From an uncultured Acidobacteriota bacterium (GTDB lineage: Bacteria; Acidobacteriota; Thermoanaerobaculia; Multivoradales; UBA5704): 64,000 bases of DNA. Location: contig CAVYRF010000001.1 in NCBI GenBank assembly GCA_963770895.1, positions 1,536,001-1,600,000 of the forward strand, written 5' to 3'. The position numbers and the translations under genes were made by a program. The notes under the pieces are model-generated. The model saw only the letters and a list, made by a program, of their open reading frames with translations, did no database searches and was not told the origin of the DNA. Numbering within the stretch: position 1 is the first letter of the stretch; each line of letters opens with the position of its first letter. This document shows, piece by piece, positions 1 to 64,000 of this stretch.

Positions 1-3000
1 TCAGCGACGGCTGGTCGACGGGGGTGCTCATCCAGGAGCTGGCGACGCTCTACCCGGTAATGGCCCGCGGGGAGGCGTCGCCCTTACCGGAGCTGTCGGT
101 CCAGTATGCCGATTTCGCCGTGTGGCAGCGACGTTGGCTCACCGGAGAGGTCATGGCGGCGGAGCTGGCGTACTGGCGGGAGCGCCTGGCCGGAGCTCCG
201 CAGGCGCTGGAGCTGCCCATGGATCGTCCGCGTCCGGCGGTGCAGACTTTCCGCGGCAGGACCCTGTTTCTCTCTCTTCCCACCCCGCTGGAGAGTCTGC
301 ACGAGCTGGCCCGCCGTCGGCGGGCGACCCTGTTCATGGTTCTCCTGGCCAGCGTCCAGACTCTGCTGGCCCGCCTCGCCGGCCAGTCCGACGTCTCCGT
401 GGGGACGCCCATCTCCGGCCGCAACCACGCCCAGACCGAGGGGCTGATCGGTTTCTTCGTCAACACGCTCGTGATGCGCTCGGACCTGGCGGACGAGCCG
501 GCCTTCGGAGCGTTGCTGGAGCGCGTGCGGGAGACCGCCCTGGAGGCCTATGCCCACCAGGACCTGCCGTTCGAGAAGCTGGTGGAGGAGGTGGCGCCGG
601 AGCGCAACCTGGGCCGGACGCCGCTGTTCCAGGTGATGCTCGTCCTCCAGAACGCCGCGTTAGCAGGCCTGGAGCTGCCGGATCTACGCCTGGAGCCTCT
701 GCCCGTGGACAGCGGCACGGCAAAGTTCGATCTCACCCTGAGCCTGGGCGAGCATCGCGGCGCCCTCGCGGGGTTCGCCGAGCACAATCGGGACCTCTTC
801 GATGCGACCACGGTCCGCCGCCTGCTGAGCCAACTGGACAACCTCCTTCAGTCGGCCCTGGCCGCGCCGGAAAGAAACGTCTTCGATCTGGAGCTGATGG
901 GAGCGGCCGAGCGCCTGCAGGTAGTGCAGGAGTGGAGCGGGGAGGATCTGGCCTACCCGCGGGAGCGCTGCGTCCACGAGCTGTTCGCGGAGCGGGCGGC
1001 GCTCCATCCGGAGGCCCTGGTGGTGTCGTTCCGGGACGAGGCCTGGAGCTATGGGGAGCTGGACCGCCGCTCGGCTCTCGTCGCGGAGCACTTGCGGAGC
1101 CTCGGGATCGGGCCGGAGGTGCCGGTGGGGCTGCTCACCGAGCGCTCGCTCGAGATGGTGGCCGGCGTGCTGGGAATCCTCAAGGCTGGCGGGGCATACG
1201 TGCCGCTGGACTCGTCCTTCCCGGCCGAACGGCTGGAGTGGATGCTGCGGGACACCGGCGCCCCGGTGGTGCTGGTCCAGGAGCGGCGGCTGGGGGATCT
1301 GCCGGCCGGCCCCTGGCGGGCCGTGAGCTTGGAGGGCCTCTGCCAAGGCTCCGAGATGGCTGCCACACCGGGACGGAGCCCTGGCGCGTCCCCGGACAAT
1401 CCGGCCTATGTCCTCTACACCTCGGGCTCGACGGGGGCGCCGAAGGGGGTGGTCGTGCCGCACCGGGCGGTGGTCCGCCTGGTGCGCGGCCGGGGCGACC
1501 TGTGCATCGGCGCCGACGAGGTCTGGCTCCAGCTCGCACCTCTGGCCTTCGACGCCTCGACGTTGGAGATCTGGGGGGCCCTGGCCAACGGCGGACGCCT
1601 GGAAGTCCTTGGACCCGACAAACCGACGATCGAGGAGCTCGGGCGGACGGTCGAGTCCACAGGCGTGACCTCCGTCTGGCTGACGGCGGGTCTCTTCCAC
1701 CAGGTCGCGGAGTCGGACCTGCGGCCCTGGCGGGGTCTGCGCAGGCTCCTGGCCGGGGGGGACGTGCTCTCTCCGGCCCACGTCCGGAGGGCCCTGGAAG
1801 AGCTGCCGGACTGCCGCGTGATCAACGGCTACGGCCCCACGGAGAACACCACCTTCACCTGCTGCCATGACCTGACGGCACCCTCCCAGTTGGAGGGTCC
1901 GGTGCCGATCGGCCGTCCGATCGCCAACACGCGGGTCCATCTGGTGGACCGCCGCGGCCATCCGGTGCCGCCCGGAGCCCCGGGCGAGCTGCTGACGGGA
2001 GGCGACGGCCTGGCCCGCGGCTATCACGGCCGGCCGGACCTCACGGCGGAGCTCTTCGTCCCCGATCCGTTCGCCGGGCAACCGGGAGAGCGGCTCTACC
2101 GCACGGGCGACCTGGCGCGCTGGCGGCCCGGCGGGGAGATCGAATTCCTCGGCCGGATCGACCAGCAGGTCAAGATCCGCGGCTTCCGCGTCGAGCCGGG
2201 GGAGATCGAGGCGGCGCTGGCAACCCTGCCCGGAGCTCGGGAGGTCGTCGTGGTGGCGCGTGAGGATAGGTCCGGTAACCAGCGGCTGGTCGCCTATGTG
2301 GTCGGGGACGTCGAGGCCGACTCGCTGCGCCGGTCCCTGCGAGAACGGCTGCCGGACTACATGGTGCCTGCCGTCTTCGTGACCCTCGATGCGCTGCCCC
2401 TCACCGCCAATGGCAAGGTCGACCGGAGAGCCCTGCCTGCGCCCGACGGGCCACCTGCCGGCGTCGGCGATCTGGCACCGCGGACACCCGTCGAAGAGAT
2501 CCTCGCAGGAATCTGGGCTGATGTCCTCGGCGTCGGACGGGTCGGAGTGAACGATCACTTTTTCGACCTGGGAGGACACTCGCTGCTGGCAACGCGTGTG
2601 ATGTCGCGTATGCGCGGCGCCTTCGGGGTCGAGATCCCGCTGCGCAGCCTCTTCGAGGCTCCGACGCTGGCGCATTTCGCAGCCCGGATCGAGGCGGCGC
2701 TCCAGGCCCGCGCGGCCGAGCTCGCACCGCCGCTGATTCCCATCCCGCGGACCGGGCCCCTGTCCCTGTCGTTCGGCCAGCAGCGCCTCTGGTTCATTGA
2801 CCAGCTCGCGCCGGGCAGCCCGCTCTACAACATTCCGGCGGTGTTGCGCGCCGAAGGGAGTCTGGACCCTCGGGTCCTGGCGCTCACCCTCGGTGAGATC
2901 GTGCGCCGTCATGAGGCCTTGCGCACGGTCTTCGCTGCGCCGGAAGGCTCACCGGTGCAGGTCATTCAACCCGAGACCCCCTTTCTACTGCACGTGGTGG

Positions 3001-6000
3001 ACCTCTCGGGGCTCCCGGAGAGCGCGCGCAAGCCGCTGGCCCACACCCTGGCCTGGGAAGAGGCCGTCCATCCCTTCGATCTCGCTCGCGGCCCCTTGCT
3101 GCGCGTGCTGCTGCTGCGGGTGGCGGAGGGAGACCATGTCGTTGTATTGACCATGCATCACATCGTCAGCGACGGCTGGTCGATGGGCATCCTGGTGGGA
3201 GAGCTGAGAGATCTCTACGAGGCGTTCGCCCAGGGCAGGCCGTCCACCTTGCCGGAGCTGCCGATCCAGTACGCCGATTTTGCGGTCTGGCAGCGGAGCT
3301 GGCTCCAGGGGGAGGCCCTGGAGGCGCAGCTCGATTATTGGAAACACCAGCTCCAGGGGGCGCCCACCGCTCTGGACCTCCCTCTCGACCACCCGCGCCC
3401 GGCGTTGCAGGGCCACCGCGGTGCGAAGCGCCTCGTCGCCCTCCCCGGCCTGCTTTCGGAGGCAATCGGACGCCTGTGCAGCCAGCGGGAGGTGACCCCC
3501 TTCATGACCCTGCTCGCCGCCTGGGCGGTCCTGCTGGGACGCCATGCGAGGCAGGACGACGTGCTCGTGGGCGCGCCGATCGCCGGCCGCAACCGGCGCG
3601 AGATCGAGGGACTGATCGGCTTTTTCGTCAACACGCTGGTGTTGCGTTCGGATCTGTCAGGAACCCCGAGCTTCCATGAGCTCCTGGACCGGGTTCGCCG
3701 CACGGCCCTCGACGCCTTCACCCATCAGGATCTTCCCTTCGAGCGGATCGTCGAGGAGGTCGTCGCCGAGCGGAACCAGGCGATCTCTCCGCTCTTCCAG
3801 GCGGTCTTCGCCCTGCAGAACGCCCCCCTGGAAGACCTGGAGATACCAGGGCTGGTGCTCTCGCCATTCGACGTGGATATGGGCATTGTGAAATTCGATC
3901 TCACCCTGACTCTGCGGGAGAGCCCGGCGGGTTTTGTGGGAGTGCTGGAGTACAACGCGGATCTGTTCGAGGTCAGCACGGTGGATCGCCTGCTGGCTCG
4001 CTTCGAGGCCCTCCTCGCAGCCGCGGTCCAGGAGCCATCCCTGCCCGTGGCGGATCTGCCGATCCTCCTGCTCGGAGAACGGCAGCAAATGCTCGTGGAG
4101 TGGAACGACACGCGCATCCCCCTCTTCCCAGCTGGTCTCCACGAGCTCGTCGAGGCCCAGGTCGACCGCTCTGCGGACACCGTGGCCGTCGTCGCCGGAG
4201 ACGAGTCCCTCACCTACCGCGAGCTGGATCTTCGCGCCGACCGTGTGGGCCATCACCTGCGCACGTTGGGGGTCGGCCCGGACGTCCTCGTCGGCCTCTG
4301 TGCCGAGCGCTCACCGGAGATGGTGATCGGCATGTTGGGCATCCTCAAGGCGGGAGGCGCCTACGTGCCCATCGATCCGGACAATCCCCCGGAGCGTTTC
4401 GCCTTTCTCCTCGCGGATTCAGGGGTCCGGGTGGTGCTGACGCAACGGCATCTGGCGGACCGGATTCCGGCCGCAGAGGTGTGTCTCGTCCTCTTGGACG
4501 GCGAGGTTAGGACCGCGGGCGCACGAGGCGAGAGGCCTCGCGGCGGGGCGCTGCCGGAGAGCCTCGCCTACGTCATCTACACCTCGGGCTCGACCGGCCG
4601 TCCCAAAGGGGTCCTGGTCCCGCACGCCGGTGTGGTGAACCGCCTCCTGTGGGCTCAAGACGCCTACCCGGTGACCGCCGCGGACCGGGTCCTGCACAAG
4701 GCCTCCTTCAGCTTCGATTTCTCGGTGTGGGAGTGCTTCGGACCGCTGATCGCGGGAGCCCGGCTGGTCCTCGCCCGCCCCGGAGAGCAGCGCGATCCCG
4801 CCCAACTGGTCCGCACCATCCGGGAACAGGAGATCACGCTCGTCCACTTCATCCCGTCCATGCTCCAGGTCTTCGTGGCCGAGGAAGGGGTCGAGGCGTG
4901 CACGAGCCTGCGCTATGTCTTCTCCGGCGGCGAGGCGCTTCCCGCGGAGCTTGCGGAGCGCTGCCTCGAGCGGCTGCCGGCGGTGCTGCGCAACCAGTAC
5001 GGCCCCACGGAGATCTCCATCGACACAACCGATTGGATCTGCCGGCCGGAGGACTCTCGCCGGGGCTTCGTCCCCCTGGGGCTTCCCCTCGCCAACACAG
5101 CCCTGTATGTCCTCGATCAGACCCTCTCTCCCATGCCGCCTGGGGTGGCTGGCGAGCTATGCGTGGGAGGCGCGGGAGTGACGCGAGGCTACTGGCAGCG
5201 GCCGGACCTCACCGCCGAAAAATTCGTCCCCGACCCCTTCTCCGGGCAGCGGAGCGCCCGGCTGTACCGGACCGGCGATCGAGCCCTCCGCCTGCTCGAC
5301 GGCAACGTCAAGTTCCTTGGCCGCATGGATCACCAGGTCAAGATCCGCGGCTTCCGGATCGAGCTCGGAGAGATCGAGGCGACGCTCGCAAGCCATCCCG
5401 CGGTGCGGGAGTGTGTGCTCCTCGTGCGCGAGGATACGCCAGCCTCGCGCCTCCTCGTCGCCTATGTCGTCCTGGAGCCGCAAGCGGAAATCCAGGAGCC
5501 GGGCTCAGACCTCCGCAGCTTCGTGGGCGAGCGGCTGCCCGGATACATGGTGCCGTCCGCCATCGTGGCTCTGGACGCCTTCCCCCTGTCGCCCAATGGC
5601 AAGTTGGACCGGCGGGCTCTGCCGGCTCCGCAGAGCACCCGGACGTCCCGGTCAAAGCGCCGGCGAGCGGCACGTCCGGTTGAAGAGAGCTATACGGCGC
5701 CGTCCAACCCGGTGGAGGAGCTGCTGGCGGGGATCTGGGGCGAGGTCCTGGGGATCCAGCGCGTCGGGATTCATGAGAGCTTCTTTGCTCTTGGCGGGCA
5801 CTCCCTGCTGGCGACGCAGGTGGTGTCGCGCGTCCGGAGCGTGCTCGGCGCGGAGCTGCCGCTGCGCCAGCTCTTTGAATCTCCGACCATCGCGAGCCTC
5901 GCCCGCATCCTGCAGAGCTCGGGGAGCACCGTCCAGGCGCCGCCCATCCTGCCAGTGCAGCGCGACCACGATCTGCCCCTCTCCTTTGCCCAGCAGCGGC

Positions 6001-9000
6001 TCTGGCTCGTGGATCAGATCGAGCCGGGCAACCTCGCGTACAACATGCCCCTGGCGCTGCGCCTGACCGGCGGGATCGCGCCCGGGCTGCTGCAGGGGAT
6101 CTTCTCCGAGATCGTCCGCCGGCATGAGGCGCTGCGGACCACGTTCGCGTCGCGCGACGGCTGGCCCGTGCAGGTGATCGCCCCGACGGGGCCGGTCGAG
6201 CTGCCGGTTCTCGACCTTTCCCATTTGCCGGAGAGCGAACGCGAGGCGCAGGCGCGGGATCTGGCGCTTTTCGAGGCCCAACGTCCCTTCGACCTCCGGG
6301 GCGGACCGTTGCTGCGCCTGCTCCTGGTGCGCCTGGCCGGGACGGACCACCTCCTGCTCCTGACCCTCCACCACATCGTCTCGGACGGCTGGTCCACGGG
6401 GGTGATGCTGCGCGAGATCGCGGCTCTTCACGAGGCCTTCTCGCAGGGGCGGCCTTCCCCTCTCGCCGACCTGCCGGTGCAGTACGCCGATTTCGCGGTC
6501 TGGCAGCGGAGCTGGCTGCAGGGCGAGGTCCTCGACGCGCAGCTCGCAGGCTGGAAGCGCCAACTCGCCGGGGCGCCGGCGGTGCTGGAGCTGCCTCTTG
6601 ACCGCCCGCGCCCGGCGATCCAGAGCTACCGCGGCGCGAGACGCCCGGTGGTCCTCTCCTCTCCTCTCTCGGAGGCGGTCGGGCGCCTGTGCCGCCAGCA
6701 AGGGGTGACCCCCTTCATGGCCCTGCTCGCCGCCTGGGCGGTCCTGCTGGGGCGCCACGCGGGAGAGGACGACGTGCTCGTCGGCGCGCCGATCGCCGGG
6801 CGGAACCGGCGGGAGATCGAAGACCTGATCGGGTTCTTCATCAACACTCTGGTGTTGCGCCTGGACCTTTCCGGAGCCCCGAGCCTCGCCGAGTTTCTGG
6901 GCCGGGCGCGCCGGACCGCCCTCGACGCTTTCGCCGGCCAGGACCTCCCTTTCGAGCGCCTGGTCGAAGACCTCGCCCCGGAGCGGTCCCTCGCCTACGC
7001 GCCGCTTTTCCAGGTGATGTTCGTCTTGCAGAACATGCCGGTCGGGGAGCTCGCCGTTCCGGGTCTTGCGATCTCCCCGCTCAACGTGGACGCAGGTCTC
7101 GCGAAATTCGATCTCTCTCTGAACCTGTTCGAGGGCCCGGAAGGGGTTATGGGGACGTTGACGTACGCCGTGGACCTCTTCGACGAGAGCACCGTGGAAC
7201 GGTTGATCGCTGGTTTCCAGACCCTCCTTGCCGCGATGGCCGCGGCCGATCCCGCCGCGCCGCTACACGACCTGGAGGTCCTGCCGGAAGCCGAGCGGCG
7301 GCAGCTCCTGGAGGGGTGGAGCGCCGAGGAGACGGGGGCCTCGGACCTCTCCCTCTACGAGCTGTTCGAACGCCAGGCCGAGCGGACGCCTGACGCCGTG
7401 GCGGTGATCTATGAAGAGGAGTCCTGGACCTACCGGGACCTGCTGCGCCGGAGCCGCGAGATCGCCGGCTTCCTCCGCGAGCAGGGGGTCGGTCCGGAAG
7501 ATCGCGTGGCGATCCTTGACCGGCGTTCGCCGGAGCGGCTCGCCCGGGTCCTGGGCGTGCTCGCTTCCGGAGCGGCGTTCGTGGCAATCGACCGCGAGCA
7601 GCCCCGGGCGCGCCGGGCGGAGGTCCTGGCCGACGTGGCGCCGGTGTGGGTCTTCCCCCCGCAGCCGCCACTCCCGGAAGAGGGAGAAGGGGAGGTGGAG
7701 GCGGGAGTGACCGTCCTCCCGGAGGTCGGCATCGGAGGCTCCCACGTGCCGTGCTCCTGCCAGGGACCCGCCTATGTGGTCTATACGTCCGGCTCCACCG
7801 GACGCCCCAAGGGCATCTTCGCCCATCACCGGGGCGCCGCCACCTACCTGGAGTGGATCGTCCGCAACTACGGCCTCTCGGAATCCGACGTGGCGTTGCA
7901 GCTCGCGCCTCTCACCTTCGACGCCTCCCTGCGCGACACGCTCGCGCCGCTGGCGGCAGGGGGGCGGATCGTGATCGTCCCGGATGACGTGGCGCGCGAT
8001 CCGGCGGCTCTCCTGGAACGAATGGCGGCGCACGGGGTCACCTGCCTGCCGAGCATCGTCCCTTCGCTGCTCCGCCTCCTGGTCGAGGAGGCGCTGGCCG
8101 CGGGCCGGAAGATCCCTTCGCTGCGCCTGCTGCTGGCGAGCGGCGAGAAGCTTCACGGCGCGGACGCCGCGGCGGTCCGGAGGGCCTTCGGCCCTCGGGT
8201 CTCGCTGGTCAACCAGTACGGAGCGAGCGAGACGACCATGACTTCGACCTGGTACGCGGCCACTGCGGACGACGAGGCCCGGCCGGCGCTGCCGGTGGGC
8301 CGGCCGGCCGCGTCCTCGCGGGTCTACCTGCTGGACCGGAGGCTCCGCCCCGTGCCGCTGGGCGCAGCCGGGGAGATCTGCTGCGGAGGTCCCGGCCTGA
8401 CGTATGGGTACCTTGGGCAACCGGACCGCACGGCCGAGGCCTTCATCCCCGATCCCTGGAGCGCCGTGGGCGAGCGGCTCTACCGGTCGGGAGACCGCGG
8501 CCGGTACCGTCCCGATGGCGTCCTGGAGCTGCTCGGACGCATCGATTTCCAGGTGAAGATCCGCGGTCAGCGCGTCGAGCCCGGGGAGGTCGAGGCCGTG
8601 CTGCGCAGCCATCCGGCCGTGCGGCAGGCGGTTGTGGAGGCCCGCGGAGAAGAGCAGCCACGCCTGGCGGCCTGGCTGGTGGCGCAGGGCGTGAGCGCCA
8701 ATGACCTCCGCGCTTTCCTGGCGGAGCGTCTCCCCGCTTCCATGATTCCTGCCGACTGGGTCTTCCTCGACGCCCTGCCGCTCACGCCACACAACAAGGT
8801 CGACCGCTCGCGCCTGCCGGAGCCCAGCCGCGAGCGCGCGGTGGCCGTCCAGGAGCCCCGCGACCGGACCGAGCTGCGGCTCGTCCGCCTGTGGGAAGAG
8901 GTCCTGGGCATCCAGCCGGTCGGGATCTCCGACAACTTCTTCACCCTCGGAGGTCACTCCCTGTCCGCCGTCCGCCTGATGGCCGGCATCCGTCGCCTCT

Positions 9001-9788
9001 TCGGCCGGGACCTCCCCCTCTCCGTGCTCTTCCGGAAGCCCACGGTCGAGGAGCTCGCCGACACCCTGCGGCAGGGCGGCCAGGATCTCCCTTGGTCCCC
9101 CCTGGTGGCGCTGACGCCGGGGCCCGCGGGCGAGATGCCTTGGCTCTTCATCCACGGCGGAGACGGGCACGCCCTCACCTTTGCCGATCTGGCCCGTACC
9201 TTGAGCGCGGCTGGTGAAGACCGGCCGGTCGTCGCCTTGGAGGCCCGCGGTCTCGCCGACGGGCAGACGCCGCTGGAGAGCATCGAAGACTTGGCGGAGG
9301 TCTACCTCAGCGCAATCCGGAAGGCCTGGCCAAGGGGCCCCTACCGGCTGCTGGGGTACTCCATGGGGGGCAAGGTCGCCTTCGAAATGGCCCGCCGGCT
9401 GGAGCAGGAGGGCGAAACCGTGGAGCCGCTGATCCTCCTGGACATTCCCGCCCTCCCGCGCCCCGAGTCGGTTCCGGATCTCGAGGTCCCCGAGGAGGTC
9501 CGCGCTCTGCCGGGCTTCGATCCCGAGCTGGCGGACCGCTACCTCGCCGTCTGGAGGGCGCACCTGAAAGCCTCCCATTCCTGGACGCCGGCGCCCTTCG
9601 GGGGCAAGGTCCGCCTCCTCGTGGCGGAGGGGGGAACCTATGCCGGGAACCCGGATCCGGCCCTCGGCTGGGGAGCCGTGGCCGGGGGAGGGGTCGAGGT
9701 CGCCTCAACCCCGGGAGATCACTTCAGCCTGCTCCGGCCGCCGCACGTCCAGATCCTCGTGGAGCGCTACTTGAAGAGGTGTCTATGA
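1..9788 (+). CDS. Non-ribosomal peptide synthetase, 5'-truncated: (C)-A-T-C-A-T-C-A-T-TE
   Basis: The frame is open from position 3 (SDGWSTG, end of an HHxxxDG motif). It has two further HHIVSDGWS motifs, three YTSGSTGxPKG A3 motifs, three GGHSL carrier motifs and a terminal GYSMGG thioesterase with a late GDH. By-eye pocket codes: A1 DALWLGGTFK (Val-type), A2 DFWHFGQIDK (Glu/Gln-like), A3 DARSLSQMTK (atypical). Confidence 0.97.
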   Translation, partial: SDGWSTGVLIQELATLYPVMARGEASPLPELSVQYADFAVWQRRWLTGEVMAAELAYWRERLAGAPQALELPMDRPRPAVQTFRGRTLFLSLPTPLESLHELARRRRATLFMVLLASVQTLLARLAGQSDVSVGTPISGRNHAQTEGLIGFFVNTLVMRSDLADEPAFGALLERVRETALEAYAHQDLPFEKLVEEVAPERNLGRTPLFQVMLVLQNAALAGLELPDLRLEPLPVDSGTAKFDLTLSLGEHRGALAGFAEHNRDLFDATTVRRLLSQLDNLLQSALAAPERNVFDLELMGAAERLQVVQEWSGEDLAYPRERCVHELFAERAALHPEALVVSFRDEAWSYGELDRRSALVAEHLRSLGIGPEVPVGLLTERSLEMVAGVLGILKAGGAYVPLDSSFPAERLEWMLRDTGAPVVLVQERRLGDLPAGPWRAVSLEGLCQGSEMAATPGRSPGASPDNPAYVLYTSGSTGAPKGVVVPHRAVVRLVRGRGDLCIGADEVWLQLAPLAFDASTLEIWGALANGGRLEVLGPDKPTIEELGRTVESTGVTSVWLTAGLFHQVAESDLRPWRGLRRLLAGGDVLSPAHVRRALEELPDCRVINGYGPTENTTFTCCHDLTAPSQLEGPVPIGRPIANTRVHLVDRRGHPVPPGAPGELLTGGDGLARGYHGRPDLTAELFVPDPFAGQPGERLYRTGDLARWRPGGEIEFLGRIDQQVKIRGFRVEPGEIEAALATLPGAREVVVVAREDRSGNQRLVAYVVGDVEADSLRRSLRERLPDYMVPAVFVTLDALPLTANGKVDRRALPAPDGPPAGVGDLAPRTPVEEILAGIWADVLGVGRVGVNDHFFDLGGHSLLATRVMSRMRGAFGVEIPLRSLFEAPTLAHFAARIEAALQARAAELAPPLIPIPRTGPLSLSFGQQRLWFIDQLAPGSPLYNIPAVLRAEGSLDPRVLALTLGEIVRRHEALRTVFAAPEGSPVQVIQPETPFLLHVVDLSGLPESARKPLAHTLAWEEAVHPFDLARGPLLRVLLLRVAEGDHVVVLTMHHIVSDGWSMGILVGELRDLYEAFAQGRPSTLPELPIQYADFAVWQRSWLQGEALEAQLDYWKHQLQGAPTALDLPLDHPRPALQGHRGAKRLVALPGLLSEAIGRLCSQREVTPFMTLLAAWAVLLGRHARQDDVLVGAPIAGRNRREIEGLIGFFVNTLVLRSDLSGTPSFHELLDRVRRTALDAFTHQDLPFERIVEEVVAERNQAISPLFQAVFALQNAPLEDLEIPGLVLSPFDVDMGIVKFDLTLTLRESPAGFVGVLEYNADLFEVSTVDRLLARFEALLAAAVQEPSLPVADLPILLLGERQQMLVEWNDTRIPLFPAGLHELVEAQVDRSADTVAVVAGDESLTYRELDLRADRVGHHLRTLGVGPDVLVGLCAERSPEMVIGMLGILKAGGAYVPIDPDNPPERFAFLLADSGVRVVLTQRHLADRIPAAEVCLVLLDGEVRTAGARGERPRGGALPESLAYVIYTSGSTGRPKGVLVPHAGVVNRLLWAQDAYPVTAADRVLHKASFSFDFSVWECFGPLIAGARLVLARPGEQRDPAQLVRTIREQEITLVHFIPSMLQVFVAEEGVEACTSLRYVFSGGEALPAELAERCLERLPAVLRNQYGPTEISIDTTDWICRPEDSRRGFVPLGLPLANTALYVLDQTLSPMPPGVAGELCVGGAGVTRGYWQRPDLTAEKFVPDPFSGQRSARLYRTGDRALRLLDGNVKFLGRMDHQVKIRGFRIELGEIEATLASHPAVRECVLLVREDTPASRLLVAYVVLEPQAEIQEPGSDLRSFVGERLPGYMVPSAIVALDAFPLSPNGKLDRRALPAPQSTRTSRSKRRRAARPVEESYTAPSNPVEELLAGIWGEVLGIQRVGIHESFFALGGHSLLATQVVSRVRSVLGAELPLRQLFESPTIASLARILQSSGSTVQAPPILPVQRDHDLPLSFAQQRLWLVDQIEPGNLAYNMPLALRLTGGIAPGLLQGIFSEIVRRHEALRTTFASRDGWPVQVIAPTGPVELPVLDLSHLPESEREAQARDLALFEAQRPFDLRGGPLLRLLLVRLAGTDHLLLLTLHHIVSDGWSTGVMLREIAALHEAFSQGRPSPLADLPVQYADFAVWQRSWLQGEVLDAQLAGWKRQLAGAPAVLELPLDRPRPAIQSYRGARRPVVLSSPLSEAVGRLCRQQGVTPFMALLAAWAVLLGRHAGEDDVLVGAPIAGRNRREIEDLIGFFINTLVLRLDLSGAPSLAEFLGRARRTALDAFAGQDLPFERLVEDLAPERSLAYAPLFQVMFVLQNMPVGELAVPGLAISPLNVDAGLAKFDLSLNLFEGPEGVMGTLTYAVDLFDESTVERLIAGFQTLLAAMAAADPAAPLHDLEVLPEAERRQLLEGWSAEETGASDLSLYELFERQAERTPDAVAVIYEEESWTYRDLLRRSREIAGFLREQGVGPEDRVAILDRRSPERLARVLGVLASGAAFVAIDREQPRARRAEVLADVAPVWVFPPQPPLPEEGEGEVEAGVTVLPEVGIGGSHVPCSCQGPAYVVYTSGSTGRPKGIFAHHRGAATYLEWIVRNYGLSESDVALQLAPLTFDASLRDTLAPLAAGGRIVIVPDDVARDPAALLERMAAHGVTCLPSIVPSLLRLLVEEALAAGRKIPSLRLLLASGEKLHGADAAAVRRAFGPRVSLVNQYGASETTMTSTWYAATADDEARPALPVGRPAASSRVYLLDRRLRPVPLGAAGEICCGGPGLTYGYLGQPDRTAEAFIPDPWSAVGERLYRSGDRGRYRPDGVLELLGRIDFQVKIRGQRVEPGEVEAVLRSHPAVRQAVVEARGEEQPRLAAWLVAQGVSANDLRAFLAERLPASMIPADWVFLDALPLTPHNKVDRSRLPEPSRERAVAVQEPRDRTELRLVRLWEEVLGIQPVGISDNFFTLGGHSLSAVRLMAGIRRLFGRDLPLSVLFRKPTVEELADTLRQGGQDLPWSPLVALTPGPAGEMPWLFIHGGDGHALTFADLARTLSAAGEDRPVVALEARGLADGQTPLESIEDLAEVYLSAIRKAWPRGPYRLLGYSMGGKVAFEMARRLEQEGETVEPLILLDIPALPRPESVPDLEVPEEVRALPGFDPELADRYLAVWRAHLKASHSWTPAPFGGKVRLLVAEGGTYAGNPDPALGWGAVAGGGVEVASTPGDHFSLLRPPHVQILVERYLKRCL
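3470..3760 (+). repeat. Intragenic near-duplicate of a C-domain segment (second copy at about 6684-6970)
   Basis: The DNA encoding 'TPFMxLLAAWAVLLGRHAxxDDVLVGAPIAGRNRREIExLIGFF' is nearly identical in C2 and C3, consistent with module duplication or gene conversion. Confidence 0.75.
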
Positions 9789-11431
9789 GCCGCAGCCGAA
9801 TGGATTGCCTGAGCATCGGGTACTACGAGCCCGCCTTCGAGGAGCACGAGAGGATCCTCCGCCAGCTTGGAGAGGACTCGGAGGCCTACCGCGACCTGCA
9901 GTTCAGCTTCGTCGACCTGGGCGACCGGAAGCTGACCTACATGGGGCTCCTGAGCTATGCCTACCGCCTGGCCCATGGCCTGGATCCCGCAGGGGAAGAC
10001 GACTTCAAGTCGGGGGACATCCCGAACCTGGCCGCGGTCTACCTGACGCACTTCCTGCGCCTCAAGGGGTTGCGGGCCGAGTACGTCAACCTGTTCTCCT
10101 ACGAGCAGGACCGGCTGCGGAGCTGCCTGGACGAGGACCCGCTCTGCGTGTCCATCACGACCACGTTCTACAGCCTCAACTTCCCGGTCATCGAGATCGT
10201 CAAGGGAATCCGCCGGTACAGCACGCGGACGCGGATCGTGGTCGGCGGCCCCCTGGTGGCGAACCACCACCGTCGCTACCCGCCCGACGAGCTGCTCATC
10301 GCTCTCGACGATATGGGCGCGGACATCTACGTCATCGAGTCACAGGGTGAGCAGACTCTGTGGCGCGTGGTCGAGTGCCTGAAAAATGGCGGCGACCTGT
10401 CCCGGGTGCCGAACATCGTCTACCGCGACGAGGCGACCGGGGAGTTGCGCCTGAACGAGGCCGAGCGGGAGAACAACTCCCTCAACGAGTACGCCATTGA
10501 CTGGCGGCTCTTCCGGGGCGACGCCTTGGGGCCGACGCTGCAGACGCGGACCGCCCGAAGCTGTGCGTTCAGCTGCGCCTTCTGCGGCTACCCGACGAGG
10601 GCGGGAAAGCTCACCCTGGCCAGCCTCGACACCATCGAGCGCGAGCTCGATTCGATGCGGGACATTGGCGGCGTCCAGAACGTGGTCTTCATCGACGACA
10701 CCTTCAACGTGCCCCTGCCGCGGTTCAAGGACATCTGCAGGCTGATGATCCGCAAGGGCTACGGCTTCAACTGGTTCTCCTACTTTCGCTGCAGCAACTC
10801 CGACGAGGAGGCGTTCGAGCTGATGGCCCGCAGCGGGTGCAAGGGAGTGTTCCTCGGTATCGAGTCGGGCTCGCCCCGGATCCTGGAGAACATGGACAAG
10901 CACGCGGCTGCCGACAAGTACCGCGAGGGAATTCGCAGGCTCAAGCAGCACGGGATTCTGACCTTCGGCTCCTTTATCGTCGGCTTTCCCGGTGAGACCG
11001 AGGAGACGATCCGGGAGACCGTGGACTTCATCCGGGAGACCCGGCCGGACTTCTATCGGGCCCAGATCTGGTACTGCGAGCCGGGGACCCCCATTTACTA
11101 CCGAAAGGAGAAGTACGGGATCGAGGGCGAGGGCTACAGGTGGCGGCACTCCACCATGGAGAGCCAGGAAGTGATGGACTACATCGACGACATGTTCCTC
11201 GACATCCGGGAGTCGGAGTGGCTTCCACAATGGTCCTTCGACTTCTGGGTCATCCCGTACCTGCTTGGCAAAGGAATGTCCCTGGAGCAGTTCCGAGGCT
11301 TCGTCCACGAGGCCAACCGGGCGCTGTCGCTGGAGATCGAGTACGTGCCGGACGCGGAGAAACGGCGGCTCCAGCGCGACTGTGTCCAGAAGATGGTTGA
11401 CAACCTTCGCGGGTGGCGCCCGGCCGCCTAG
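9785..11431 (+). CDS. Cobalamin-dependent radical SAM methyltransferase, PhpK (P-methyltransferase)-like
   Basis: CxxxCxxC (CAFSCAFC), B12-binding 'VVGGP' region, 'FIDDTFN', 'GIESGS' and 'FIVGFPGET'. The N-terminal 'DCLSIGYYEP...AYRDL' resembles the PhpK family. The ATG overlaps the NRPS stop (ATGA at 9785-9788). Confidence 0.85.
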   Translation: MSRSRMDCLSIGYYEPAFEEHERILRQLGEDSEAYRDLQFSFVDLGDRKLTYMGLLSYAYRLAHGLDPAGEDDFKSGDIPNLAAVYLTHFLRLKGLRAEYVNLFSYEQDRLRSCLDEDPLCVSITTTFYSLNFPVIEIVKGIRRYSTRTRIVVGGPLVANHHRRYPPDELLIALDDMGADIYVIESQGEQTLWRVVECLKNGGDLSRVPNIVYRDEATGELRLNEAERENNSLNEYAIDWRLFRGDALGPTLQTRTARSCAFSCAFCGYPTRAGKLTLASLDTIERELDSMRDIGGVQNVVFIDDTFNVPLPRFKDICRLMIRKGYGFNWFSYFRCSNSDEEAFELMARSGCKGVFLGIESGSPRILENMDKHAAADKYREGIRRLKQHGILTFGSFIVGFPGETEETIRETVDFIRETRPDFYRAQIWYCEPGTPIYYRKEKYGIEGEGYRWRHSTMESQEVMDYIDDMFLDIRESEWLPQWSFDFWVIPYLLGKGMSLEQFRGFVHEANRALSLEIEYVPDAEKRRLQRDCVQKMVDNLRGWRPAA

Positions 11432-11432
11432 T

Positions 11433-11511
11433 CTAGTGGCCTGTATCAGAGGAATCGGTAGTGGCTGGCGCCGCCATTCGGCGGCGCGGCCCTGGTACAG
11501 GCCGCCACTAG
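11433..11511. terminator. Nested inverted repeat between convergent genes, probably a bidirectional terminator
   Basis: Inner stem GCGCCGCC-attc-GGCGGCGC (11468-11487). Outer arms CTAGTGGC-CTGTA and TACAG-gcc-GCCACTAG. No clear U-tract. Confidence 0.5.
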
Positions 11512-11534
11512 TACCGACCGACTCGAGCGGAGCG

Positions 11535-13982
11535 CTACTTGGAGCGGAACAGGGTGGAAGGATCCGCCTTGGTCGCCCAGTAGGCCGGCCTCAGGATCGC
11601 CGGCAGGGAGAACAGCGCGATGATGCAGGGCACGATGAGGAAGACGACGGGATCGTAAGGATCGACGTCGAACAGGATACTCCCCATCGTCTTCGCCAGG
11701 CCGAGAGCGAACGCGAGCCCCGCGACCAGGCCGATGGCGAGCAGCACCGCCCCTTTCCCGGCGAACTGCCGCAGGATGTCGGACGGGTCGGCCCCGATTG
11801 CCATGCGGATGCCGATCTCGAAGCTCTGCTGGCGTACGGTATAGACCAGGATCGAGTAGATCCCGATCACCGCGAGCAGGAGGGCCGACGACGCGAAGAA
11901 GATCAGCAGGAAGGCGTTGAGCCGCATGCCGGCCTCCTCGTTGTGCCTCCGTTCCTGCAAGGTCTGGATGTCGTAGACTGGGATGTCGGGGGCGATCGTC
12001 TGCATCAGGTTGCTCAGCTGGAAGCGGGTCTGGTTACCCTCCCCGCGCGTATGCAGCAGGATCGACGCGGTCCTCGCCCGCATCTGGAGCAGGGGAAAAT
12101 AGACGTCGCGGTGGAAATCGTGATCGAACAGGAGGCGCCCGCGCTGGTCGACATCCTCGACGACGCCGACCACCTCCGCCCAGACGTTCTGCGAGGCCCC
12201 CGAAAAGAACCGCTTGCCGACCGGGTTCTGGGAGGGCCAGAGCGCCTCCGCCGTGGAGCGGCTGAGGATGGCGACCACGGGGTGGCTGGCGTCGTCCTGC
12301 TCGTTGAAATCGCGCCCCTGGATGAGCTTGATGCCCGTCTTCCGCAGTAAGTTGGGCGAGCTCCGGTTGTCATAGACCTTGACCTTGTCCTCCGGCGCTT
12401 CGAGCGACTTCCCTGCCGGGACGATGAACCGGTAGGTATAGCCTTCGCCCAGAATGCCGGGACCCCACAGGCCCGCCTCCTCCACGTCCGGCAGAGTCCG
12501 TGCCTTCTCGAGCACCTGCTTGTACAGCAGGTATACGGGCCCGTCCTCCTTGTACTGCGTTGGAGGCAGCTCGAACCGGGCGCTCAGGACGTGCGCCACC
12601 TGGAACCCGGGGTCGCTCTGGATCAAGGCCCTCAGGCTCTTGATCAGGAGACCCGCTCCGACCAGCAGGATGACGGAGAAGAAAACCGCCGAGACGACCA
12701 GGAAGCTCCGGGTGAAAGCCGTGGCCGCCGACTGGCTGTGCCCCTTGCCCTCGGACTGCAGCTCCTCCTGGAGGTCCACGTTCAGGCTTTTCCGGGCCGG
12801 GATCACGCCGATCAGGACGCTGACCAGGACAGACACGATCACCGCCGCCGCCAGGGCTCGCAGGTCCACCGAGAACTGCATGAAGGCCGGGAGGTTGTAG
12901 GCTTGCCCGCCGAACGTGGAGAGGAGCTTCACCGCGAAGAAGGCCGCGCCGACGCCGAGCAGGGCGCCCGCCAGGCAGAGGAGGGCCCCTTCGAGGACGA
13001 AATGGCGGATCAGGCGCAAGCGGCTGCTTCCCAGGGCTAGCCGCAGGGCCACTTCCTTGCGCCGGTCGACCGCCCGCACCAGGAGCAGGTTGGTGACGTT
13101 GGCGCAACCGACGAACAGAACGAAGACCGCTCCGATGAGCAGGGTCAGGACGGACAGGCGCATGCGCTCGAAGTCGAACTGGAATGTACGCAAGGGATCG
13201 ACGGTGGTCACGAAGCCCTGGTTGGAGCTCGGGAAGGTGTGGGCGAGCTGTTGCGAGATCGCGCGCATGTCCTGCCGGGCCCGCTCCAGGCTGACCCCCG
13301 GCCGCCGGCGCGCGAACACGTCCAGCCAGCGCGCGATCCGGTCCTCGACGTAACCCGGCCGTTGCGTCAGCCTGGAGATGGTCACGGGCACGTAGAGATC
13401 GATGTCGCGATAAATGTCGCGGAAGCCCTCGGGCAGGACACCGATGACCTGAAACGCGAGGCCCTGGAGCTGGATGCTCCGGCCGACGATCGAAGGGTCC
13501 CCGCCGAAGCGGCGTTTCCACAGGCCGTGGCTGATCACGGTCACCGCCTGCGGGCTGGTCCGGTTCTCCTCCTCCGGCTGGATGTTCCGCCCGAGAGCCG
13601 GCCGGACTCCCAGAAGATCCAGATAGGAAGCAGAAACGTAGCCGGCGTTGACCCGCTCGGCACGGTCGCCCCCGGTCAGGTTGAGCTGCTGGCCGTTCGA
13701 GCTCGCGGAGATCAGCTCCAGAGTCTGGCTCTGCTCACGCCAGGAATCGACGTCCATGTAGGAGGCCGGCAGGATCGACCCATCCCCTGCGGCCCGCATC
13801 CTCAGGACGGTCAGGCGGTCTCCCTCCTTGTAGGGGATCTCGCTCAGCAGCACGGAGCTCGCGATGCTGCAGATCGTCGTCGTCGAGCCGATGCCCAGGG
13901 CCAGGATCATGAGGATGGAAAACGAGAGGCCGGGCCTTTTCACCAGGGCTTTGAAAGCTTGTCGAAGATCCGATGCCATCAT
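11535..13982 (-). CDS. ADOP-type duplicated ABC transporter permease (MacB_PCD/FtsX x2)
   Basis: 'LALGIGSTTTI', 'GCANVTNLLLVRA..RRKEVALRLALG' and 'EIGIRMAIGA' in a duplicated 815-aa layout. No ATPase gene adjacent. Confidence 0.9.
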   Translation of the reverse strand: MMASDLRQAFKALVKRPGLSFSILMILALGIGSTTTICSIASSVLLSEIPYKEGDRLTVLRMRAAGDGSILPASYMDVDSWREQSQTLELISASSNGQQLNLTGGDRAERVNAGYVSASYLDLLGVRPALGRNIQPEEENRTSPQAVTVISHGLWKRRFGGDPSIVGRSIQLQGLAFQVIGVLPEGFRDIYRDIDLYVPVTISRLTQRPGYVEDRIARWLDVFARRRPGVSLERARQDMRAISQQLAHTFPSSNQGFVTTVDPLRTFQFDFERMRLSVLTLLIGAVFVLFVGCANVTNLLLVRAVDRRKEVALRLALGSSRLRLIRHFVLEGALLCLAGALLGVGAAFFAVKLLSTFGGQAYNLPAFMQFSVDLRALAAAVIVSVLVSVLIGVIPARKSLNVDLQEELQSEGKGHSQSAATAFTRSFLVVSAVFFSVILLVGAGLLIKSLRALIQSDPGFQVAHVLSARFELPPTQYKEDGPVYLLYKQVLEKARTLPDVEEAGLWGPGILGEGYTYRFIVPAGKSLEAPEDKVKVYDNRSSPNLLRKTGIKLIQGRDFNEQDDASHPVVAILSRSTAEALWPSQNPVGKRFFSGASQNVWAEVVGVVEDVDQRGRLLFDHDFHRDVYFPLLQMRARTASILLHTRGEGNQTRFQLSNLMQTIAPDIPVYDIQTLQERRHNEEAGMRLNAFLLIFFASSALLLAVIGIYSILVYTVRQQSFEIGIRMAIGADPSDILRQFAGKGAVLLAIGLVAGLAFALGLAKTMGSILFDVDPYDPVVFLIVPCIIALFSLPAILRPAYWATKADPSTLFRSK

Positions 13983-16087: not shown

Positions 16088-16228
16088 CCCCCTCGGACCG
16101 CTGGCATTACGCTTTCCCAGGCCTGGGAAATCATAGGCGAAAGCCAGCTCGAGCGCGAGCATGGGAACCGAACCGCCGAAGCTGCCGCGCTTCATCTCAA
16201 AGCGGCGATCGCGATGCGCGCCGGCAGT

Positions 16229-16506
16229 TGACGTGCCCCCCTGAAACTGGCCAGGCGATAGAGTGAGTCCTCCGGCAAAGGCAGTGCCTGGAGGAAGCGA
16301 TGAGGAAAAGTCGGTTCACGGAAGAGCAGATCATCCGGGTGTTGAAGGCGGCTGAAGCTGGAGAAAAAGCCACGGACCTGTGCCGGAAGCACGGCATTAG
16401 CGAGCAGACTTTCTACCGTTGGAAGGCCAAATTTGGCGGTATGGACGTCAGTGAAGCGCGGCGGACGGCTCTCACGCTCGCGGCCTCCTGGCGACCGGCG
16501 GTGTAG
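16229..16506 (+). mobile_element. IS3-family remnant: left inverted repeat plus truncated OrfA (16300-16506)
   Basis: Begins TGACGTGCCCCCCTGAAACTGGCCA. The ORF 'MRKSRFTEEQIIRVLK...CRKHGISEQTFYRWKAKFGGMDVSEARR' is a typical IS3 OrfA HTH, but similarity stops before the leucine zipper and no OrfB follows. Confidence 0.85.
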
Positions 16507-16791
16507 GCGTTGCTCGCGCCGGCCGACAGTCCAGGGTGGCAGGTGGCTGACCCGCCTGCGGCGCTGGCTGTGGCCGCGGTAGCGGTGCTTTCTCGGCGGC
16601 GTGAGCGCCCGGCCGCTTCCGGGGCCTCTAACGGCTCTCCGCTTTGTCAAACAACCAATCTTTGATGAAGTCGATATCTTCGCGGAGCTCTGACCCAGCG
16701 CACAAATCCGTCCTGGGCCTGTCGGTCCATGGCTGACCTGTTCCATAGTAAATGAATGGTAGCAAGGCTTGATCAATCAAAATTGGAGCCA

Positions 16792-17601
16792 TTAGCTCGC
16801 GAACGGCGCGCGCTGTTTCGGCGAGCAAGCTGTGCGCGAAATCACCAACCGCCTCCGCCTGACGGCGAGTTCAGCCGGTTTACCCCCAACCATGAGCATC
16901 TCAACCGTACCGTCAATGTTGGTTGAACAGTCGCTCGCCTGAGTCATTGCTGTCACGCTCAGTTGAGCCATTATCCGGAACCGCTTGGAGGGGTTCTTAA
17001 CAAGCACATATTGCTCCGTAGTCTGCTTCCCGCTTACTGCAGTGGTGGTTCTAGTGGTGCTCAGCAACTTCAATGCTTCCCGCCTGCCTTGCTGCGCTGC
17101 ATAATCAGACGGGGTGTTGCCCTTCTGGTCTTCAGCATGGGTGTCAGCACCGTTGGCCAGCAGCACTTTCACTACGTCGGCCTTGCCGAGCAGTGCGGCT
17201 ACATGTAGGGCGGTCATGCCATTAAGGGATTTAGCGTTGATGTCTGCCTTATGTGCGAGCAGCAGGGCCACAAGAGGTCCCTGTCCATCGATTTCGACCT
17301 TGCCTCCCATTGCGGCTAATATCAGGGGTGTCGCGCCATTGTTTTCTCTCGCGTTGACATCCGCTCCCTTGGAAAGCAGGAACTCCGCAACGTCCGTGTG
17401 GGACGTGAAGACAGCTTCGTGCAAGGGTGTATTGCCAGATGCGTCCTTACTGGAGATAGCTACCGGATCGCGCGCGAGCAGAGACTTCACCTTCGCAAGA
17501 TCGCCTTGCTTTGCTGCGTCATGTATCTCGCCACAAAAAGCGACAGTGGGCAGGATACCATCCGTGGCGCTCCGGCCGCGCCGCTGTAAGCGGTGCAGCA
17601 A
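16792..17601 (-). CDS. Ankyrin-repeat protein; start and C-terminus uncertain, possibly frameshifted
   Basis: GNTPLHEA, GATPLILAA, GMTALHVAA and GNTPSDYA repeats. Visibly lower GC than the flanking DNA. Confidence 0.8.
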   Translation of the reverse strand: MLHRLQRRGRSATDGILPTVAFCGEIHDAAKQGDLAKVKSLLARDPVAISSKDASGNTPLHEAVFTSHTDVAEFLLSKGADVNARENNGATPLILAAMGGKVEIDGQGPLVALLLAHKADINAKSLNGMTALHVAALLGKADVVKVLLANGADTHAEDQKGNTPSDYAAQQGRREALKLLSTTRTTTAVSGKQTTEQYVLVKNPSKRFRIMAQLSVTAMTQASDCSTNIDGTVEMLMVGGKPAELAVRRRRLVISRTACSPKQRAPFAS

Positions 17602-17807
17602 CGGTTCGCCTCGAGGTGAACGTCAAGAGAGCCTGCGTCCGGGCGGCGCGTTCCTCGCCAGGTCTGCGAGGTGACGCAGGCGGGCAGCTGAAGCCTTGCT
17701 ACGGCTCCAGGTGGGTGACATGGAGCACGGTCCGAGCGAAACCAACGGCGCCGCGAGGCCGCCTGCAACGGTGGGTGGTCCTTGGCTAACATAGGGCTCC
17801 TCCGCCC

Positions 17808-18469
17808 ATGTGGATGCTCCCGCCCAACGCCAACCGCCTGCCGCGCAGCGGCGAAAGCGCGACAGAACTTTGGCTGCGAGCGCGACCGCTGGCGGGGACG
17901 GCGGCGGAGGCGTATCTCGAACGGCGGCGGGTGGCGCTGGCGGTGGCAGCGGCGGCTGAGGTGCGCTACACGGACGACTTGAACGGACGCCCGGCGGTGC
18001 TGGGCCGGCTGGTGGGGCCGCAGGGCGAGTTGCGGGCGGTGCACGGACGGCACCTCGAGGTGCGGCGAGGCGAGGGGAAGATGTTCACGGTGGGCGAGGC
18101 GGGCGGGGTGTTCGTGACGCTCGATGGCCTTGCCGCGGCGCCGCTGGTGTTGGTCGAAGGGATGTTCGATGCGCTTTCGGTCGGCGGCGGTGGCCTGGCG
18201 TGCGTGGCGACGATCGGGCGCTGGGTGGATTGGCTGCCGGCGGCGGCGCGCGGGCGGGAGGTGTGGCTGGCTTTCGACGCCAACCGGCCGGGGGAGCGGT
18301 CGGCGCGGGAGTTCGCGGCGGCACTGGCGGCGGCGGGAGCGGACTGCCGGCGGCTGCGGCCGCCGAGCGGTCACGGTGACTGGAACGCCGAGGCGCGGCG
18401 CCACGGCGCGGCGAGCCTGGCGCGGTGGCTGGAGCGACATGCTGCCGGCTCACTCGAGGAGGTGCGGTG

Positions 18470-18470
<1 letters not shown>
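17808..18470 (+). CDS. Toprim-domain (plasmid/phage primase-like) protein, N-terminal zinc-binding part apparently lost
   Basis: '[15 protein letters not shown]', '[12 protein letters not shown]', 'LAFDAN..G' and 'GDWN' match the toprim_3-type pattern. Confidence 0.7.
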
Positions 18471-19036
<566 letters not shown>

Positions 19037-19151
19037 CGTCGGGTCCCGCCACGCCGCTGAGGACCACGCAGAGGCTTTGAAGCGGGCGGCCGACCGGGCC
19101 CGCCGCCCGCTGGCGAATTGGATGCCCGACCGCCGCTCCGCCGGCCGCGGT

Positions 19152-54548: not shown

Positions 54549-64000
<9,452 letters not shown>

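Follow-up and report, generated by a model that had tools for sequence, protein, structure and literature searches.

The stretch of DNA analysed here (the window: 64,000 nt from an uncultured Acidobacteriota bacterium, assembly GCA_963770895.1, contig CAVYRF010000001.1, positions 1,536,001-1,600,000 of the forward strand; all coordinates below are window positions) has a GC content of ~70% and opens inside a nonribosomal peptide synthetase (NRPS) gene, which is followed directly by the gene for a cobalamin (B12)-binding radical S-adenosylmethionine (SAM) enzyme, here called the rSAM (Table 1). In the junction sequence ...GAAGAGGTGTCTATGAGC... the NRPS stop codon TGA (9786-9788) overlaps the ATG at 9785, and the sequence and a Pfam match confirm the original prediction that an ATGA joins a thioesterase (TE)-bearing NRPS to a B12/radical-SAM gene. 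A GTG at 9779 appears as an alternative rSAM start in the list of open reading frames (ORFs), but we prefer the ATG because alignments to homologues begin at residue 1 (100% coverage). The predicted layout is one of co-transcription, with the rSAM in an operon with the terminal NRPS gene, and neither a sigma-70-like promoter nor an intrinsic terminator was found in 9500-11800. Rfam gave no match across the window, and we therefore see no cobalamin riboswitch in it.

Relatives were collected in one scan of the GTDB species genomes, which gave 190, of which the best 80 (56-97% identity to the query rSAM) were kept with flanks of 10 kb on either side; because the search patterns were peptide patterns taken from the query's own clade, these 80 loci, designated by L numbers, describe that clade only. 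They comprise 75 Acidobacteriota (mostly Pyrinomonadaceae/Blastocatellia), three Myxococcota, one Dyella and one without a name. The first 16 kb of the window are collinear at 96-97% nt identity with L001, which covers 20477-42120 of the 52-kb contig JASLEW010000394.1 from a metagenome-assembled genome (MAG) of the Thermoanaerobaculia (Acidobacteriota), and this synteny stops near 16090. Overlaps such as this 4-nt ATGA are commonplace in operons, and it is not conserved in the relatives, whose upstream gap is -3 in only a few loci (L001, L007, L080) and usually 10-150 nt. Against its L001 orthologue, from which it differs at only 41 nt, the rSAM gene has a dN/dS of 0.15 and by this measure is under purifying selection. 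A foreign origin of the gene was considered and set aside, as its GC content at third codon positions (GC3) of 0.91 equals that of the neighbouring genes; because GC3 matches the neighbours, the lower overall GC of the rSAM reflects protein composition. A tblastn search of PLSDB plasmids with the rSAM returned no match at E ≤ 1e-30.

The radical SAM motif CxxxCxxC is formed by C260, C264 and C267 (nt 10562-10585) and is invariant in 23 homologues and in both alignments made. An AlphaFold2 model built from 23 sequences (mean predicted local distance difference test, pLDDT, 86.9) aligns to cobalamin-bound TsrM, OxsB and TokK with E values of 1e-13 to 1e-20, and we judge from this that the N-terminal domain is a cobalamin domain. 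The best PDB fold matches of the model, all of them B12-radical SAM enzymes, are TsrM (E 2.6e-20), MgmA, OxsB, AprD4, CysS and TokK, among which MgmA is the methyl-coenzyme M reductase (MCR) glutamine C-methylase and the matched CysS is bound to pantetheinylated substrates; by sequence alone, the protein finds weak PDB matches (best E 1.4e-15). Together, the modelled fold class and the cofactor motifs identify the window protein as a cobalamin-dependent (class B) radical SAM enzyme.

The NRPS ORF encodes 3261 aa, in which Pfam finds three Condensation (C), three AMP-binding (adenylation, A), three PP-binding (peptidyl carrier protein, PCP) and one Thioesterase domain; it is collinear with its L001 counterpart at ~97% nt identity, and the three modules visible in the window have canonical C domains. 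A-domain pocket codes were read at positions mapped by GrsA numbering, and we take the extraction as validated because many of the codes agree with well-known ones. The code of the first visible module, DALWLGGTF, presumably specifies Val. The A domain of the third module is unusual, with an A5 motif NQYGASE in place of the usual NxYGPTE, and its code DARSLSQMT occurs in the window and L001 only, among 131 A domains. The closest relative with another layout is L002, whose rSAM is 72% identical to the query: it has the Val-like and DFWH[FL]GQID modules in common with the window (its second-module code, DFWHLGQID, is near-identical), and there the rSAM is followed by half a condensation domain (half-C) and an Asn-like module.

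Table 1. Coordinates of features in the NRPS/rSAM region of the window
Feature	Position	Strand	Basis
NRPS gene, (C)-A-PCP / C-A-PCP / C-A-PCP-TE	3..9788	+	ORF and Pfam; 5' end open at window edge
First visible module, A code DALWLGGTF (Val-like)	3..2702	+	Pocket-code extraction
Second module: C with HHIVSDG, A, PCP; code DFWHFGQID, no assignment	2763..5897	+	Pfam, motif location, code extraction
Third module: C with HHIVSDG, A, PCP; code DARSLSQMT	5970..9092	+	Motif location, code extraction
Thioesterase, GYSMG active-site motif	9150..9776	+	Pfam PF00975, aa 3050-3258, E 7.1e-28
Shine-Dalgarno-like GAAGAGG, inside the NRPS 3' end, 5 nt before the rSAM ATG	9773..9779	+	Read from sequence
ATGA, rSAM start codon on NRPS stop codon	9785..9788	+	Read from sequence
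Cobalamin-binding radical SAM enzyme, TIGR04479, clade separate from PhpK	9785..11431	+	548 aa; Pfam, NCBIfam, trees
B12-binding (Rossmann-like) domain, aa 77-164	10013..10276	+	Pfam PF02310, 29.1 bits, below cut-off 32.1; fold match
Radical SAM core, aa 257-416	10553..11032	+	Pfam PF04055, E 6.3e-26
ADOP-family duplicated MacB/FtsX permease	11535..13982	-	TIGR03434, 742.8 bits against cut-off 622.3; Pfam MacB_PCD, FtsX
M49-family peptidase, last gene syntenic with L001	14054..16087	+	Pfam PF03571, E 6.3e-44

Relation to PhpK and the search for phosphonate genes

The rSAM scores 641.9 bits against the NCBIfam model TIGR04479 (bcpD_PhpK_rSAM, "PhpK family radical SAM P-methyltransferase"; cut-off 600), and so passes the profile hidden Markov model (HMM) of the PhpK family against which it had been proposed to score it. 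As the PhpK reference we used P0279, named PhpK of Kitasatospora phosalacinea by its sources and obtained from a homology search seeded with P0135; BLASTP aligns the rSAM to it from residue 8 (residue 4 of P0279) at 44% identity over 504 aa, in line with the N-terminal resemblance to PhpK noted earlier. The description "PhpK-like" thus stands at the level of the NCBIfam family and of full-length identity, but it does not extend to orthology. A FastTree phylogeny of 110 rows separates a query clade of 19 rows from a PhpK clade of 12, each with a support of 100, and in an IQ-TREE LG+C20 tree of 40 rows the query clade (11 rows) again has a support of 100, while the PhpK clade lies inside a 19-row group (support 99) that does not contain the query. 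By the topology of both trees, the window rSAM is not a PhpK orthologue. The 19-row group around PhpK includes P0167, an rSAM-C-PCP-TE fusion, and the PhpK clade itself also holds P0292, P0299 and P0305, from Isosphaeraceae, Pyrinomonadaceae and Nitrospira genomes or MAGs.

The breadth of TIGR04479 bears directly on what its name can mean here. The homology search gave 3176 matches at E ≤ 0.001 among 8000 scored candidates, the best 120 of which are all 62-97% identical to the query, and 574 representatives at the 50%-identity clustering level have E ≤ 1e-30. Of 39 diverse representatives that were scored, which share 33-57% identity with the query, 18 passed the TIGR04479 cut-off, with the top scores going to forms of ~800 aa; true PhpK reaches 695 bits, compared with 733.7 for a Streptomyces avermitilis paralogue that falls outside the PhpK clade and 620.7 for the NRPS-fused P0391. 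Because the model is broad enough to admit NRPS-fused rSAMs and a non-PhpK paralogue, passing it says nothing on phosphorus versus carbon as the methyl acceptor, and the label "P-methyltransferase" is probably wrong for the query clade.

PhpK, like BcpD a P-methyltransferase of phosphinothricin-tripeptide biosynthesis, and the window rSAM share the same NCBIfam family, length and architecture as well as the 44% identity that runs from the N-terminus on, and both belong to pathways that use NRPSs. They differ in that they fall into separate, well-supported clades, in that no pepM lies near the query or its 80 relatives, and in that the query clade is wired to NRPS modules with half-C or C-like domains. 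PhpK methylates a phosphinate in vitro (Werner et al., 2011, cited by PMC9204698 and PMC8950095), and its physiological substrate is described as still debated (PMC9204698).

The original prediction had also stated that no pepM or other phosphonate gene lies in the window, with which our searches agree. Pfam found no phosphonate gene among 34 candidate ORFs of the window and no PEP_mutase match among ~160 neighbour ORFs and cluster representatives of the related loci. The motif EDKxxxxxNS, which we take to be the signature of PepM, does not occur in any of the six reading frames of the window and the 80 loci (1.35 Mb). With no phosphoenolpyruvate (PEP) mutase in the window or in the 80 loci with their flanks, and with an HMM that cannot separate P- from C-methylases, the suggestion of a new methylphosphinate-containing peptide is left unsupported. 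In L045 a cofactor-independent phosphoglycerate-mutase-like gene (PhosphMutase/Metalloenzyme; L045:7761-9026) lies directly upstream of the rSAM, near SbnA/SbnB-like genes; this is a single case, and the gene is not a PEP mutase.

NRPS association and module wiring across the query clade

The window rSAM is a member of a mainly Acidobacteriota clade (56-97% identity) with adjacent NRPS genes. In tblastn searches with the window domains, matches to C, A, PCP or TE lay within 10 kb of the rSAM in 75 of the 80 loci, and megasynthase ORFs were present in 73, so that the NRPS association holds across the query clade. The layout of the window, in which the rSAM gene comes after the TE, is a minority one.

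To describe the more frequent arrangements, the next same-strand gene after the rSAM was classified by alignment to a C domain of the window. This gene opens with the C-terminal lobe of a C domain alone (residues ~199-459 of a 460-aa C domain), followed by A-PCP, in 24 of the 80 loci; with a full-length C-like domain in which P[SA]LC[AG]D replaces HHxxxDG in 14; and with a C-like domain bearing another non-His motif in five, which brings the non-canonical condensation-like starts to 43. A canonical C domain opens it in a single locus, and in eight it is uninformative. Where an upstream NRPS was detected in the half-C loci, it ends in a complete canonical C domain. The half-C modules are uniform in their A codes, 15 of the 17 readable ones being DLTK[IV]GEV[GA], Asn-like; the form DLTK[IV]GEVG, which we take to be an Asn-type code, accounts for 34 of the 131 A domains.

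The same partners occur fused to the enzyme. A PP-binding domain is present on P0122 (own clade, 802 aa) and on the rSAM of L070 (839 aa). Among the 150 best family representatives, 36 are at least 640 aa long, and Pfam finds a partial Condensation domain in nine and PP-binding in two of these. The C-terminal extensions of ~250 aa carried by 29 representatives (~700-815 aa) match 20 half-C domains in a profile comparison (hhalign, 98.4%, E 6.9e-15, 221 columns); pairwise BLAST between the same extensions and half-C domains is weak, with E ≤ 1e-3 for 5 of the 29. A further search, aimed at longer proteins, added P0391 (rSAM-C-like-A-PCP-C, 1897 aa) and P0392 (rSAM-C-A-PCP-TE, 1960 aa), so that the rSAM / half-C-A-PCP gene order of the query clade is a single polypeptide elsewhere in the family. 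These fusions and the gene order link the family to a C-like domain and a carrier protein.

Non-catalytic condensation-like domains that recruit other enzymes are known in the X domain of glycopeptide NRPSs and in the interface domain for beta-hydroxylases. The likeness is that the module beside the rSAM in the relatives opens with a C-like domain lacking HHxxxDG or with a half-C domain, and that sister clades carry the half-domain fused to the rSAM; such starts, together with the fusions, suggest that the half-C or C-like domain docks a trans-acting tailoring enzyme. In contrast to the known cases, the recruited enzyme would be a B12-radical SAM protein and not a P450 or Fe/2-oxoglutarate (2OG) hydroxylase, and no such domain occurs in the window.

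Other genes recur in these neighbourhoods. By Pfam they include C-TauD fusions, carbamoyltransferases, glutamate mutase with asparagine synthase and racemase, SbnA/SbnB-like pairs, OTCase-like proteins, ADOP permeases and type II thioesterases. In L008, L022, L025, L026, L035, L045, L071 and L009, a glutamate mutase (Met_asp_mut_E fused to B12-binding), an asparagine synthase and an Asp/Glu racemase stand beside the rSAM together with an Asn-like A domain, and the gene content of this block suggests a building block of the 3-methyl-Asp/Asn type in those clusters. A family of ~725 aa without a Pfam match flanks the rSAM in one to three copies, with a NodU-type carbamoyltransferase, and amounts to 18 copies in nine loci (L007, L010, L011, L017, L020, L023, L054, L062, L030). 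In L025 (19127-21614) and L047 (18905-21665) the NRPS cluster that holds the 548-aa type also encodes another rSAM, which is of the ~800-aa type and joined to a partial condensation-like domain. The myxobacterial loci L061 (Archangium minus), L064 (Vitiosangium sp.) and L073 (Myxococcus xanthus AM003) have the order NRPS, rSAM and an NRPS opening with His-less APALCAD, followed in L061 and L064 by an M28 peptidase and, on the opposite strand, a second B12-rSAM of 723 aa (the contig of L073 ends before this point); these cultured myxobacteria are tractable strains for tests of the family.

Proposed function and competing explanations

We consider it reasonably probable that the window rSAM is an assembly-line-associated, cobalamin-dependent C-methyltransferase that serves the adjacent NRPS outside any phosphonate pathway. 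The use of a PhpK-family enzyme for C-methylation in an NRPS pathway was the other alternative offered by the original prediction, and it is the one that genomic context favours. Following the steps expected of this enzyme class, a [4Fe-4S] cluster on C260/C264/C267 would cleave SAM reductively, the resulting 5'-deoxyadenosyl radical would strip an amino-acid residue of a hydrogen at an unactivated carbon, and the methyl group would come from methylcobalamin, with a second SAM re-methylating the cobalamin. From the enzyme class, we infer that the NRPS product is methylated at a carbon of one of its amino-acid residues. The substrate would most likely be a carrier-protein-tethered aminoacyl or peptidyl intermediate, since the relatives show an rSAM then half-C-A-PCP order and the family is fused to half-C domains, to a carrier domain and to a whole module. 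Given that the rSAM follows the TE gene with no partner module in view, it may act in trans upstream or on the released peptide. In the former scenario it would work on a module beyond the window, which could lie upstream of the window edge and for which the Asn-type module of the relatives is the leading guess; in the latter it would act in the manner of DscE, discussed below, for example by converting Val to tert-Leu, a Val-like module being present.

A wider and tentative proposal, which we put forward as possible while doubting it somewhat, is that the query clade and much of the "PhpK family" form an undescribed class of B12-radical SAM tailoring enzymes that dock to assembly lines. A dedicated half-condensation or His-less condensation-like adaptor would bring them to the aminoacyl-S-carrier of one module, most often of the Asn type, and they would give C-methylated residues, possibly alpha- or beta-methyl-Asn, in many peptides of uncultured Acidobacteriota, with P-methylation by PhpK as a specialised offshoot that may itself act on a carrier-bound substrate. 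The C-like adaptor and the Asn-type partner are a lead at the level of the family and are not represented in the window itself.

Several observations weigh against assigning C-methylation and its assembly-line mechanism to the window gene. C-methylation is deduced from sequence, a structural model and genomic context, and the sole biochemically characterised member of TIGR04479 that we identified is a P-methylase with 44% identity to the query. The A-domain assignments are only as firm as the GrsA-based numbering and the reference codes behind them. The contexts of the 80 loci are uninformative on other clades of the family, and a C-P pathway may exist elsewhere in the genome, the gene searches covering the window and the 80 loci. 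Among those loci, the gene following the rSAM opens with something other than a condensation-type domain in 28, and a TE followed by the rSAM, as in the window, occurs in two (L001 and L037). The window has no half-C or C-like module after the rSAM, with a convergent permease gene downstream instead. Because the window lacks such a partner and its layout is so rare, the mechanism derived from the relatives may not transfer to it.

Each of the competing explanations draws on part of the same evidence. Were the rSAM a true P-methyltransferase, the NRPS would incorporate a demethylphosphinothricin-like H-phosphinate amino acid whose phosphorus is then methylated as by PhpK; the TIGR04479 score and the full-length identity to characterised PhpK would fit, phosphinothricin tripeptide is also an NRPS product, the second-module code DFWHFGQID loosely resembles Glu/Gln codes, and the third-module A domain cannot be assigned. 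Yet the rSAM falls outside the PhpK clade in both trees, the HMM equally admits NRPS-fused rSAMs and non-PhpK Streptomyces paralogues, PEP mutase is missing from the window and the 80 loci, and phosphinate peptides would have to be made by many Acidobacteriota species with no C-P genes nearby, all of which makes this explanation extremely improbable. Nearly as hard to sustain is a role unrelated to the NRPS product, with the adjacency incidental. Overlaps of 4 nt are common between unrelated operon neighbours, and five of the 80 loci (L030, L074, L076, which is a 2.4-kb contig, L078 and L079) have no NRPS domain in the available flanks, which also counts against our assignment; but NRPS domains accompany the other 75, the family is fused to PCP, C-like domains and whole modules, and the NRPS/rSAM pair is collinear in the 97% relative L001, so that we regard coincidence as very unlikely.

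The chemistry leaves more room. Non-methylating B12-radical reactions on an NRPS intermediate, such as rearrangement, ring formation, dehydration, epimerisation or C-S/C-C coupling, are unlikely but deserve the most weight among these competitors: some B12-radical SAM enzymes do not methylate, and OxsB (ring contraction) and AprD4 (a dehydratase) are among the best fold matches, which speaks against C-methylation; weak NCBIfam matches to HpnJ and BchE also concern enzymes that are not methylases; and the partner modules in some loci load Gly-like residues, on which methylation would yield an ordinary amino acid. On the other side, the nearest characterised relative, PhpK, and the best folds TsrM, MgmA, CysS and TokK are methyltransferases, and most characterised class B enzymes are C-methylases according to a review (PMC12931638). 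A polar, non-radical transfer from methylcobalamin to a nucleophilic centre of the peptide (sp2 carbon, N, O or S) seems to us less credible again, and decidedly improbable, even though TsrM, the top structural match, works in this way, which has been discussed for PhpK as well, and the same review allows radical or nucleophilic chemistry for both (PMC12931638). What speaks against it is that the rSAM has the canonical CxxxCxxC and a complete radical SAM core, that no type of residue suggests itself as the target, and that heteroatoms in NRPS clusters are usually methylated by ordinary SAM methyltransferases. Radical C-methylation of an amino-acid residue is the reading that we prefer for the window rSAM.

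Precedents and further genes of the window

A class B radical SAM enzyme that tailors an NRPS product is already a known kind; the dedicated C-like adaptor with Asn-type partner modules is the more novel lead. The precedent closest in genomic setting is DscE, a B12-radical SAM enzyme of the discodermin NRPS cluster ('Entotheonella'), which C-methylates the released peptide at positions that are Ala and Val in unmethylated congeners, as described in part of PMC12858407. Like DscE, the window gene is a B12-rSAM in an NRPS cluster, and its place after the TE-bearing NRPS fits late tailoring. The two differ in length, 693 aa for DscE against 548 aa here, the comparison being one of description and length only, and the relatives of the query point to on-line, carrier-linked action whereas DscE acts after release. 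CysS of the cystobactamid pathway is an iterative B12-rSAM C-methylase that uses pantetheinyl substrates of an NRPS pathway (excerpts of PMC8950095; PDB 9n1b/9n1c), and it resembles the window protein in its NRPS pathway, in using carrier-type substrates such as we propose for the rSAM and in its structural match to the rSAM model (E 2e-15). It differs in sharing 15-17% identity in the structural alignment, in belonging to another sequence family and in methylating an aryl methoxy group and not an amino-acid side chain.

In a full-text search of a limited literature collection we found no description of an NRPS-linked PhpK-family clade; the review passages retrieved list PhpK as a P-methylase only, and the combination of an NRPS with a radical SAM C-methyltransferase was called "an unusual enzyme combination" in 2025 (part of PMC12858407). 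In uncultured soil Acidobacteriota a B12-rSAM beside an NRPS is the rule for a whole clade, and the gene order and fusions that recur there point to a possible dedicated docking domain. Thousands of database proteins are named "P-methyltransferase", and for the query clade this name, being probably wrong, would mislead genome mining for phosphonates. If our proposal is true, it would add a route by which methyl groups are placed on unactivated carbons during nonribosomal peptide assembly, and a test of the idea needs no more than a single module and a single enzyme; it also bears on the physiological substrate of PhpK.

Alb06 is an ordinary SAM O-methyltransferase. A review excerpt names it as the albicidin homologue of CysQ, the beta-methoxy-Asn O-methylase of the cystobactamid pathway, where an Asn module occurs with a TauD hydroxylase; CysQ was considered as a related rSAM and rejected, as the portions of the literature searched never call it a radical SAM enzyme.

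Downstream of the rSAM, the ADOP-family permease gene is convergent with it, and as this permease family recurs as an rSAM neighbour in eight related loci, we regard it as a candidate exporter of the peptide. Whether the M49 peptidase that follows belongs to the cluster is uncertain. Past the end of synteny with L001, the window has an ankyrin-repeat gene (16792-17601) of low GC (0.57; GC3 0.63) and a Toprim/DUF7146 primase-like gene (17808-18470), and L001 carries a lantibiotic-dehydratase-like gene instead; the interval ~16100-19100 looks like a strain-variable, probably mobile, insertion. The gene content of the window further includes sigma-54 activators and TonB receptors. A second NRPS (54549-63998, minus strand, 5'-open) has two C, three A and three PCP domains and ends in PD40/beta-propeller and S9 prolyl-oligopeptidase domains (aa ~2570-3149) in place of a thioesterase, possibly as a non-canonical release or processing domain. 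Two LanC-like proteins are encoded on the minus strand (31036-32262 and 44170-45435), and nearby lie a Ser/Thr kinase with TPR repeats (25510-29079) and an FHA/sigma-54 activator (29072-31048).

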